From NCBI RefSeq assembly GCF_003790525.1, contig NZ_CP033635.1: a DNA stretch of 64,000 nt. One strand, given 5' to 3'. Made by a program: the position numbers and the translations under genes. The notes below the pieces were generated by a model. The model saw only the letters and a list, made by a program, of their open reading frames with translations. It was not told the origin of the DNA and ran no database searches. Positions within the stretch are counted from its first letter, which is position 1. Each line of letters starts with the position of its first letter. This document shows, in pieces, positions 35,722 to 36,408 of the stretch. The stretch comes from Escherichia coli. GTDB taxonomy: Bacteria > Pseudomonadota > Gammaproteobacteria > Enterobacterales > Enterobacteriaceae.

Positions 35722-36408
35722 ATGAGCTTTATGGTTTTTGTAACTTGTTTGACAATTGCATTTGTCGCCGGTTTTGCTGTTGCCAGAAAATTGACACTCC
35801 GAAAAGTTGCCTCATCGGTAATCATCACTAAATCGCAACCAGTTCCTTCCTCTGCAACTTCCCCTGCTGTTAAGGCGTCGACAAGGAGCTATACACCGCA
35901 GAAAACCTATCGTGACTCTCGTTGGCAAGAACGAGATGAGTTGTTCCAGGGAATGGTTGCCGAAGGTATTTTATTGGAAGGAAAAGAGTGGTTAATTACG
36001 CGTTGTGAAAAAATCTATTTTGATAATCTGGAGAAATGGTTTGGACATTATTGTCATATCCATTGCCAGGTCTCTCTGGGGCGCTTGATCAACTTTCCAG
36101 AACAACCCGAGTTTAGCGAAGAAGAAAGAAAGCGTTTCTTTGCAATTTATAATGGAATGGCAATGGATTATGTTCTGGTTTCAAAGAAGAACAATAAAAT
36201 AGTCTGTGTTATTGAGCTGGATGATCCGAGTCATGAAAGGGCAGATCGCATTATTCGTGACCGTTGGTTGAATACGATTATGACTATTGCACGGGTGCCT
36301 TTTGTACGAGCTTCTGTCACTAAATTGGATGAAATCCCTCCGGTCTGGGATACCCGTGACAAAATGCGCCCATTAGCCGCGGCGACAAAGGGTGAACCGT
36401 TGCATTAA
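35722..36408 (+). CDS. Hypothetical membrane-anchored protein (228 aa) with C-terminal Vsr/DUF559/DUF2726-like endonuclease-fold motif; not part of the K-12 phoH-serX gene set as I recall it
   Basis: ATG 35722; N-terminal hydrophobic helix (FMVFVTCLTIAFVAGFAVA); C-terminal DYVLV...KIVCVIELDDPSHE...RDRW...ARVPFVR pattern; preceded by a roughly 300-bp AT-rich leader; followed by 12-bp palindrome CCCCGATCGGGG. Confidence 0.6.
   Translation: MSFMVFVTCLTIAFVAGFAVARKLTLRKVASSVIITKSQPVPSSATSPAVKASTRSYTPQKTYRDSRWQERDELFQGMVAEGILLEGKEWLITRCEKIYFDNLEKWFGHYCHIHCQVSLGRLINFPEQPEFSEEERKRFFAIYNGMAMDYVLVSKKNNKIVCVIELDDPSHERADRIIRDRWLNTIMTIARVPFVRASVTKLDEIPPVWDTRDKMRPLAAATKGEPLH

Follow-up and report, generated by a model that had tools for sequence, protein, structure and literature searches.

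A DUF2726 protein with a predicted membrane tether at the phoH-serX locus of Escherichia coli, a candidate nuclease for incoming DNA

SNIPE consists of a transmembrane (TM) helix with its N-terminus outside, a DUF4041 domain and a cytoplasmic GIY-YIG nuclease, and cleaves lambda DNA during injection (Saxton et al. 2025, bioRxiv 10.1101/2025.11.03.685801). Its DUF4041 domain binds DNA and the tape measure and is required, and SNIPE without the TM helix is toxic and associates with the nucleoid (bioRxiv 10.1101/2025.11.03.685801). The present analysis concerns a gene between phoH and serX in a 64,000-nt stretch of Escherichia coli DNA (the window; assembly GCF_003790525.1, contig NZ_CP033635.1; one strand, 5' to 3'), which encodes a 228-residue DUF2726 protein. 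Like SNIPE, this protein is a single polypeptide from a single gene, with a variable N-terminal region and a predicted layout in which a short N-terminus in the periplasm leads through one TM helix to a nuclease domain in the cytoplasm. Unlike SNIPE, which combines GIY-YIG with DUF4041, it carries a PD-(D/E)xK domain of the DUF2726 family, lacks DUF4041 and is much smaller. The DUF2726 protein is an analogue of SNIPE and not a homologue. The best reading of this locus that the comparisons below suggest is a nuclease tethered to the membrane that would work on incoming DNA as SNIPE does, and we put it forward tentatively, as possible rather than probable.

Other described systems resemble the protein in part. 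Zorya and Kiwa also confine DNA targeting to the membrane where foreign DNA enters (review, PMC12904381), but each of them comprises several proteins, with the membrane sensor separate from the effector, whereas the locus described here encodes one small protein with no PADLOC match. The exclusion proteins TraS/TraT of F and Eex of SXT are linked to the family by gene position alone: relatives of the 228-residue protein occupy the same neighborhood, where they follow traT on IncF plasmids and the TraG_N gene in integrative and conjugative elements (ICEs), and an inner-membrane location is a further point of likeness. However, there is no homology, and the known exclusion proteins are not nucleases.

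The coding sequence occupies positions 35722..36408 (+ strand), starts with ATG and is preceded by an AGGTGA Shine-Dalgarno sequence about 9 nt 5' of the start codon. RefSeq annotates the same open reading frame (ORF) as WP_012311993.1, "DUF2726 domain-containing protein." An earlier note on this DNA had reported a 228-residue ORF at these positions with an N-terminal hydrophobic helix, and the residues that it quoted were found exactly in the translation, including a C-terminal motif string at residues 149-196. The gene is a real, intact gene of E. coli. Pfam DUF2726 (PF10881) was the sole Pfam domain found in the protein and matched residues 90-205 (35989..36336, + strand; i-Evalue 2.8e-18, 66.3 bits, model positions 3-116 of 126), which bears out the family proposed in the earlier note. 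The gene and its DUF2726 name were already in databases, and this assignment is not new. The protein is a direct member of the family and shares its E...D...ELDDxxH...RxxRD constellation. Going beyond the published papers on DUF2726, the comparisons revealed an Enterobacterales subfamily with an additional conserved SRWExRDELFWGM segment, which recurs in ICEs, in type VI secretion system (T6SS) operons and at the phoH-serX locus.

DUF2726 has been grouped with Vsr and DUF559 in the PDDEXK clan, with its function listed as unknown (Steczkiewicz et al. 2012, PMC3424549), and has been described as a DNase of the restriction endonuclease fold fused to AbiJ N-terminal domains (Anantharaman et al. 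2013, PMC3710099). An AlphaFold2 (AF2) model built from an alignment of 16 sequences (alignment A1) contained a long N-terminal helix (residues 3-32), a disordered stretch (residues 30-56) and a confident globular PD-(D/E)xK-type domain, with block-mean predicted local distance difference test (pLDDT) values of 86-98 for residues 91-210 and about 90 across the domain. The core of this model resembled solved PD-(D/E)xK and Vsr/DUF559-like proteins in three dimensions. Structure comparison scored the RAP domain of FASTKD4 at 8.0, Vsr (1cw0) at 7.9, the homing endonuclease domain of I-Bth0305I (3r3p) at 7.6 and the DUF559 protein NGO0050 (3hrl) at 7.0, with lower values for VRR-NUC, TnsA, Bax1 and several restriction enzymes. 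Searches of solved structures by sequence (phmmer) and with the A1 profile (hmmsearch) yielded nothing meaningful, no Vsr Pfam match was found in the protein, and alignment of the A1 profile with E. coli Vsr by hhalign gave no signal (probability 0.3%). Since this direct comparison was negative, the Vsr/DUF559 likeness claimed in the earlier note holds for the fold and the Pfam clan and goes no further. The protein also differs from Vsr in that it has no linkage to dcm, its neighbors being phoH and serX, in its membrane anchor and in the additional invariant residues D168, R176, R179 and D180. A Foldseek search of AFDB50 returned unannotated DUF2726 entries and nothing else, and the sole match in PHROGs was phrog_14167, a family of unknown function.

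Conservation within the family was examined among the hits of a full HMMER scan of 1.84 billion cluster representatives, which returned 882 representatives at E <=1e-3. Among the best 150 of these, 129 were full length and were aligned to the family profile; their mutual identity was at most about 50%. Nine charged residues were nearly invariant across this set: E96 (129/129), D149 (128/129), E165 (128/129), D167 (124/129), D168 (126/129), H171 (128/129), R176 (125/129), R179 (124/129) and D180 (128/129). All nine are present in the 228-residue protein, and they include the acidic and histidine residues singled out in the earlier note. E96 (36007-36009, + strand) lies in the first helix of the domain and is a putative active-site residue on the basis of its conservation. 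The remaining eight fall within a putative catalytic core at residues 149-180 (36166..36261, + strand), which reads D149...E165-L-D167-D168-x-x-H171...R176-x-x-R179-D180. This core opens the motif string DYVLVSKKNNKIVCVIELDDPSHERADRIIRDRWLNTIMTIARVPFVR (residues 149-196), in which D-YVLV, IELDDPSH, RDRW and RVPF follow one another. Such near-invariance of acidic, histidine and arginine residues on a nuclease fold points to catalysis rather than a purely structural role, with DNA or RNA as the possible substrate.

The only strongly hydrophobic segment of the protein, FMVFVTCLTIAFVAGFAVA, comprises residues 3-21 and is followed by RKLTLRK. Hydropathy, charge bias and the AF2 helix all indicate a single N-terminal TM helix at these residues (35728..35784, + strand). 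By the well-established positive-inside rule, the lack of any basic residue before the helix and the presence of RKLTLRK after it predict an N-out/C-in bitopic inner-membrane protein whose nuclease-fold domain would lie in the cytoplasm. This arrangement was common to the family, as 104 of the 129 full-length representatives had one hydrophobic helix within their first 70 residues. Among these 104, the mean number of lysine and arginine residues was 0.35 in the 15 residues before the helix and 4.06 in the 15 residues after it, and the C-terminal side was the more basic in 100. The same anchor was found in 55 of 62 species-level loci, an independent set that spans Gammaproteobacteria, Verrucomicrobia, Planctomycetes, Saccharibacteria, Elusimicrobia and Clostridia. 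In longer relatives (for example, P0131 and P0104), a signal peptide is followed by about 200 residues that form a domain, then by a TM helix, the stretch KAKKRRAR and DUF2726; in these proteins, therefore, DUF2726 is placed on the cytoplasmic side. Collectively, the charge patterns suggest that a cytoplasm-facing anchor is a trait of the family, shared by approximately 80-90% of diverged relatives, and the membrane tether remarked on in the earlier note is typical of DUF2726 proteins.

Two further observations concern the architecture and annotation of the family. The layout of P0131 and P0104, with about 200 periplasmic residues, a TM helix and a cytoplasmic DUF2726 domain, looks like that of a sensor-nuclease, and another distant architecture among P0131, P0104 and P0043 has a TM helix and two tandem DUF2726 domains, the second of which lacks the conserved histidine. 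Public annotation frequently drops the anchor: thousands of Salmonella entries (151 residues) start at an internal methionine, and entries from Enterobacter, Pantoea and Citrobacter (145 residues) contain the same start-codon error, with the full ORF and its TM helix intact in the DNA (for example, at 8794-9456 of locus L030 and 8001-8660 of locus L024). The 151-residue Salmonella form was considered as a natural variant without the TM helix and was rejected, as the full 219-residue ORF with its TM helix is intact and the short form reflects the start-codon call.

Between the anchor and the domain lie a basic juxtamembrane stretch and then a disordered tether rich in proline, serine and threonine (residues 22-65; 35785..35916, + strand). 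Residues 30-56 had pLDDT values below 50, and residues 22-65 were the fastest-evolving part of the protein and variable in alignment A1. The tether is followed, just before the Pfam domain, by the subfamily-specific conserved segment SRWQERDELFQGMV (residues 66-89; 35917..35988, + strand; alignment A1), which contains a short helix at residues 71-80 in the AF2 model.

The history of the locus was reconstructed by comparison with other genomes. The window was 100% identical to E. coli SMS-3-5 over the stretch compared (35160-36700). Identity to K-12 ended at 35202 and resumed at 36415, seven bases past the stop codon (blastn), and the K-12 interval instead holds pgaABCD-dgcT-IS3-ycdU (window 35203-36414 compared with L012 2101-13480). 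The DUF2726 gene was present in 1049 of 5426 complete E. coli genomes (19%), with at least 80% of the gene covered in 1043 of the 1049 carriers, and the pga segment was present in 4402 of the 5426; the window itself lacks pga. From these counts we infer that the gene and the pgaABCD-dgcT-ycdU island exclude each other as near-complementary alternative occupants of the phoH-serX interval. The 519-bp region upstream of the gene co-occurred with it (1051/5426 genomes) at about 90% identity and was more diverged than the gene. A contig labeled as a metagenome-assembled genome of Collinsella sp. (L031) carries this E. coli gene at 99% identity and is probably a mislabeled or contaminated record.

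An ortholog with 73% amino acid identity was found at the same place in Salmonella, where the order is putA-putP-phoH-DUF2726, an insertion sequence, and then either SPI-19-type T6SS genes or ghrA-ycdX-ycdY-ycdZ-csgG. The order in E. albertii is phoH-DUF2726-ghrA, and members of the Citrobacter freundii complex encode a protein of the same 90%-identity cluster, a match of cluster membership and not of locus. Salmonella STM1127 was considered as the ortholog after phoH and was rejected, as it is a MurR-type regulator of an N-acetylmannosamine island. Between E. coli alleles, the ratio of nonsynonymous to synonymous substitution rates (dN/dS) was 0.23, with 0.19 for the domain and rest of the protein and 0.42 for the anchor and linker. 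In comparison with Salmonella, dN was 0.17 and dS was saturated, as it was for phoH.

The earlier note had placed the gene in a tRNA-adjacent, AT-rich islet. Consistent with this description, the guanine-plus-cytosine (GC) content was 0.32-0.43 across approximately 35200-36400 compared with about 0.50-0.55 in the flanks, and the 3' end of serX, which faces the DUF2726 gene, lies 92 nt from the stop codon. However, signs of recent integration were absent. The segment 35203-36414 contains this ORF alone and no integrase, no att-type direct repeats bound it, and no copy of the serX 3' end was found near 35200. In strains with serX islands, the integrase-bearing island sits between the DUF2726 gene and serX; thus, the gene lies outside the integrated element. 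These findings and the synteny with Salmonella and E. albertii are most simply explained if the gene occupied this locus before Escherichia and Salmonella diverged; it would then be old and vertically inherited, preserved by purifying selection in some lineages and displaced by the pga island in most E. coli.

Closer relatives, with 37-57% identity, recur in four settings. In ICEs with an MPF_G-type transfer module, the gene order was DUF1525-TraU-x-x-TraG_N-x-(VapBC or PemK/MazE)-x-DUF2726, ~1 kb, Integrase_1 in four elements, carried by E. coli, Dickeya, Pectobacterium and a metagenomic Enterobacterales contig; locus L039 belongs here as well. On IncF plasmids, the gene stands directly after the surface-exclusion gene traT and, in one case, beside vapBC; on an E. 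albertii plasmid, traD lies downstream of it. Conjugative plasmids accounted for 69 of the 81 plasmid hits, and a DUF2726 gene has been noted to adjoin mcr-1-pap2 on IncX4 and IncI2 plasmids (PMC12915395, review-type). Among filamentous phages, seven Vibrio Tubulavirales genomes carry a DUF2726 gene, which is beside the pIV gene in 10N.261.55.E6_PE002, and inovirus-like loci of Chromohalobacter and other genera carry it as well; in the Vibrio inoviruses and in these loci, it lies near pI/pIV genes. All of the plasmid and phage copies that were translated retained the TM helix and the IELDDxSH...RD motif.

The fourth setting was the T6SS operon. In Rahnella, Citrobacter and Pantoea, the order was TssM-TssA-DUF2726-TssF-TssG-TssJ-VgrG, with gaps of <=30 nt or overlaps; the embedded genes (L024, L034, L037 and L042) are co-oriented with the operon and lie around position 10000 of each locus. 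Proteins of the same cluster occur in Enterobacter, K. aerogenes and some Salmonella, as judged by cluster membership and not by locus. Identity between Rahnella and Citrobacter was 68% for DUF2726, 60% for TssA and 71% for TssJ, and therefore the DUF2726 gene has diverged along with the operon. In Ca. Pantoea deserta, the T6SS copy carries a frameshift, and an Erwinia homologue lies directly upstream of vgrG. A contig assigned to Chryseobacterium sp. 18061 (L038) has the same T6SS layout and match statistics as Citrobacter sp. 18056 (L037) and is probably mislabeled or contaminated. Membership in a T6SS operon is a property of these homologues at 37-57% identity and not of the window gene, which stands alone between phoH and serX/ghrA, with no adjoining secretion genes.

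Collectively, the invariant constellation, the tether at the inner face of the membrane, the single-gene organization and the DNA-moving carriers fit together, and for this reason the protein is read as an enzyme for nucleic acid that arrives at the membrane. In the proposed mechanism, a few N-terminal residues would be periplasmic and the one TM helix would serve as an anchor. A flexible tether of about 40 residues would hold the DUF2726 PD-(D/E)xK domain under the membrane on the cytoplasmic side, where it would cut nucleic acid reaching the cytoplasmic face, such as DNA from phage injection, conjugation or filamentous-phage infection. The tether would also keep the enzyme off the nucleoid. 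Nuclease activity, its substrate, the topology in vivo and a role in exclusion or defense are what we infer from these comparisons. The chromosomal phoH-serX copy is best explained as an old single-gene version of a module that is otherwise found on ICEs, F-type plasmids, inoviruses and some T6SS operons. A role in defense, exclusion or DNA processing, which the earlier note had proposed with caution, remains plausible and gains indirect support from the relatives on ICEs, F plasmids and inoviruses. Distant homologues were in part found beside housekeeping genes, and no known defense-system model matched the protein.

Several observations weigh against a SNIPE-like role. None of the PADLOC-DB v2.0.0 defense families (0 at E up to 1) and no NCBIfam model matched the protein, and a literature search on DUF2726 found no experimental or functional study. 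Pfam revealed no recognizable targeting or adaptor domain like the DUF4041 of SNIPE that would guide the enzyme to incoming DNA or keep it from the DNA of its own cell. Distant homologues stand alone, and their neighbors include housekeeping genes (valS, metG, an MsbA-like transporter and HtpX) along with genes of conflict type, namely, a SLATT protein, HipA, an integrase and an S8 peptidase. Neighbor clustering across the 62 loci found no recurring partner gene besides the T6SS genes and phoH. Elements that export single-stranded DNA (ICEs, F plasmids and inoviruses) would seem to put themselves at risk with a DNase of their own at the membrane, and the homologues in T6SS operons are not obviously explained by defense at DNA entry.

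A broader and more doubtful proposal is that DUF2726 proteins form a pan-bacterial family of minimal nucleases, each encoded by a single gene and tethered to the membrane, which stand guard on the cytoplasmic side wherever DNA enters. With these enzymes, ICEs, F plasmids and inoviruses would destroy the incoming (single-stranded) DNA of competitors, which would be the first nuclease-based entry or superinfection exclusion; a literature search for nuclease-type exclusion factors in inoviruses or plasmids found nothing relevant. The T6SS copies would form a second line against conjugative attack, and the phoH-serX copy would have been domesticated and kept by about one-fifth of E. coli instead of the pga biofilm island.

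If the SNIPE-like reading is true, membrane tethering alone would suffice for a nuclease to tell incoming from self DNA, and the SNIPE principle would have evolved a second time, independently, in a much smaller protein on another nuclease fold. A domain of unknown function with hundreds of diverged clusters across many phyla would gain a function, which could explain why the gene is conserved in one ICE family, some F plasmids, inoviruses and some Enterobacterales T6SS operons and would be directly relevant to the host range of plasmids and phages and to how resistance plasmids spread. If that reading fails, the locus still presents an ancient presence/absence polymorphism at phoH-serX, with the DUF2726 gene on one side and the pgaABCD-dgcT-ycdU island on the other, and the analysis still flags a systematic start-codon error through which thousands of database entries lack the anchor. 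The generality of the cytoplasm-facing tether, the nine-residue constellation, the phoH-serX synteny with pga complementarity, the fixed slot in ICEs and the T6SS-embedded clade all appear to be unreported.

Among the alternatives, the protein could be a membrane-sequestered suicide nuclease of the abortive infection or addiction type, which a breach of the envelope or cleavage of the tether would release or activate to degrade the DNA or RNA of its own cell. The long, disordered and fast-evolving tether, the place of the gene next to addiction modules (VapBC and PemK/MazE) on ICEs and F plasmids, and the toxicity of SNIPE without its TM helix are all consistent with this model. However, no antitoxin or protease partner recurs beside the gene, which has been stably inherited without a partner on the chromosomes of Escherichia and Salmonella, and no PADLOC abortive infection model matches; we consider this explanation unlikely.

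Equally improbable, in our judgment, is that the protein is an accessory part of envelope-spanning machines (the T6SS, the conjugative type IV secretion system or the inovirus assembly apparatus) and either processes nucleic acid at the base of the machine or regulates its firing or assembly. The E. coli and Salmonella copy stands alone, without adjacent secretion genes in the window, most distant homologues lack such neighbors, and the frameshifted copy of Ca. Pantoea deserta suggests that the gene is dispensable there. The literature on T6SS accessory genes yielded no component of this kind, TagV being an unrelated lipoprotein. These findings must be set against the co-oriented homologues between tssA and tssF that have diverged in step with their operon, the Erwinia homologue upstream of vgrG, the fixed slot after TraG_N in four ICEs and the inovirus copies next to pIV, which a machine component would account for.

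A membrane-anchored RNase with a regulatory or housekeeping role, comparable to RAP/FASTK domains and to the membrane-tethered RNase Y or RNase E, is quite unlikely. Published classifications place the family with Vsr, DUF559 and DNases of the restriction endonuclease type (PMC3424549, PMC3710099), and a patchy accessory distribution (19% of E. coli) with carriage by mobile elements is unlike that of genes for housekeeping RNA turnover.

Outward-facing, membrane-anchored entry nucleases are known, namely, EndA and NucA of Gram-positive bacteria. A periplasm-facing nuclease of this kind, or one like Endonuclease I, would require an N-in/C-out topology or a cleaved signal peptide, and the sequence A-V-A at the end of the hydrophobic segment does resemble a signal-peptidase site. 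However, the segment lacks a basic n-region, its putative cleavage site is immediately followed by R and K, and the AxA pattern is not conserved in homologues (alignment A1). The charge bias of the family is opposed to this topology, and in those variants that do have a true signal peptide and a periplasmic domain, DUF2726 comes only after a second TM helix and a KKRR stretch, which makes a periplasmic orientation highly improbable. It would be just as surprising if the gene were a nonfunctional remnant of a decayed serX island, as its AT-rich region beside a tRNA integration hotspot might suggest, or a Vsr-like repair or homing endonuclease, as the fold common to Vsr and a homing endonuclease might suggest, given the purifying selection, intact state in more than 1000 genomes and synteny across genera on the one hand and, on the other, the absence of a dcm partner or an intron or intein context at the locus, the negative hhalign comparison with Vsr and a membrane anchor that makes no sense for chromosome-wide mismatch repair.

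The flanks of the gene contain several additional features. A terminator scan placed a terminator-like hairpin at 35173..35199 (+ strand), past the end of phoH (35159) and immediately before the point at which K-12 identity stops. The noncoding, AT-rich upstream region of the DUF2726 haplotype spans 35203..35721 (+ strand; approximately 32-37% GC by composition), and a promoter scan identified a sigma-70-like site within it at 35448-35476 (TTGACT-17-TATATT). On the other side, serX, a tRNA-Ser(GGA) gene and known island integration site, occupies 36500..36587 (- strand; ARAGORN and Rfam tRNA). A unit 3' of serX, composed of the last 19 nt of serX and 85 nt beyond, lies at 36415..36518 (strand not assigned; blastn), where K-12 identity resumes. 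This 104-nt unit is present in one copy in the window and in three to four copies in other strains: four downstream of serX in K-12 (L012 12962-13584) and three in O111 strain 98E11 (L010 9778-10152), of which two are named "RtT sRNA" by the Prokaryotic Genome Annotation Pipeline (PGAP). A 21-nt inverted repeat at 36421-36441 and 36510-36530 shows complementarity to the serX T-arm and acceptor end. Within the 3' end of phoH, the Rfam family Ysr251, a Yersinia antisense small RNA, matched the minus strand at 35000-35154 with 144.8 bits against a gathering threshold of 100, and the match ran to the edge of the searched stretch. The annotated start of phoH differs between records: the longest ORF in the window (34095-35159) encodes 354 residues, as in the K-12 annotation, whereas RefSeq gives the SMS-3-5 gene as a 262-residue form with its start at 34371.

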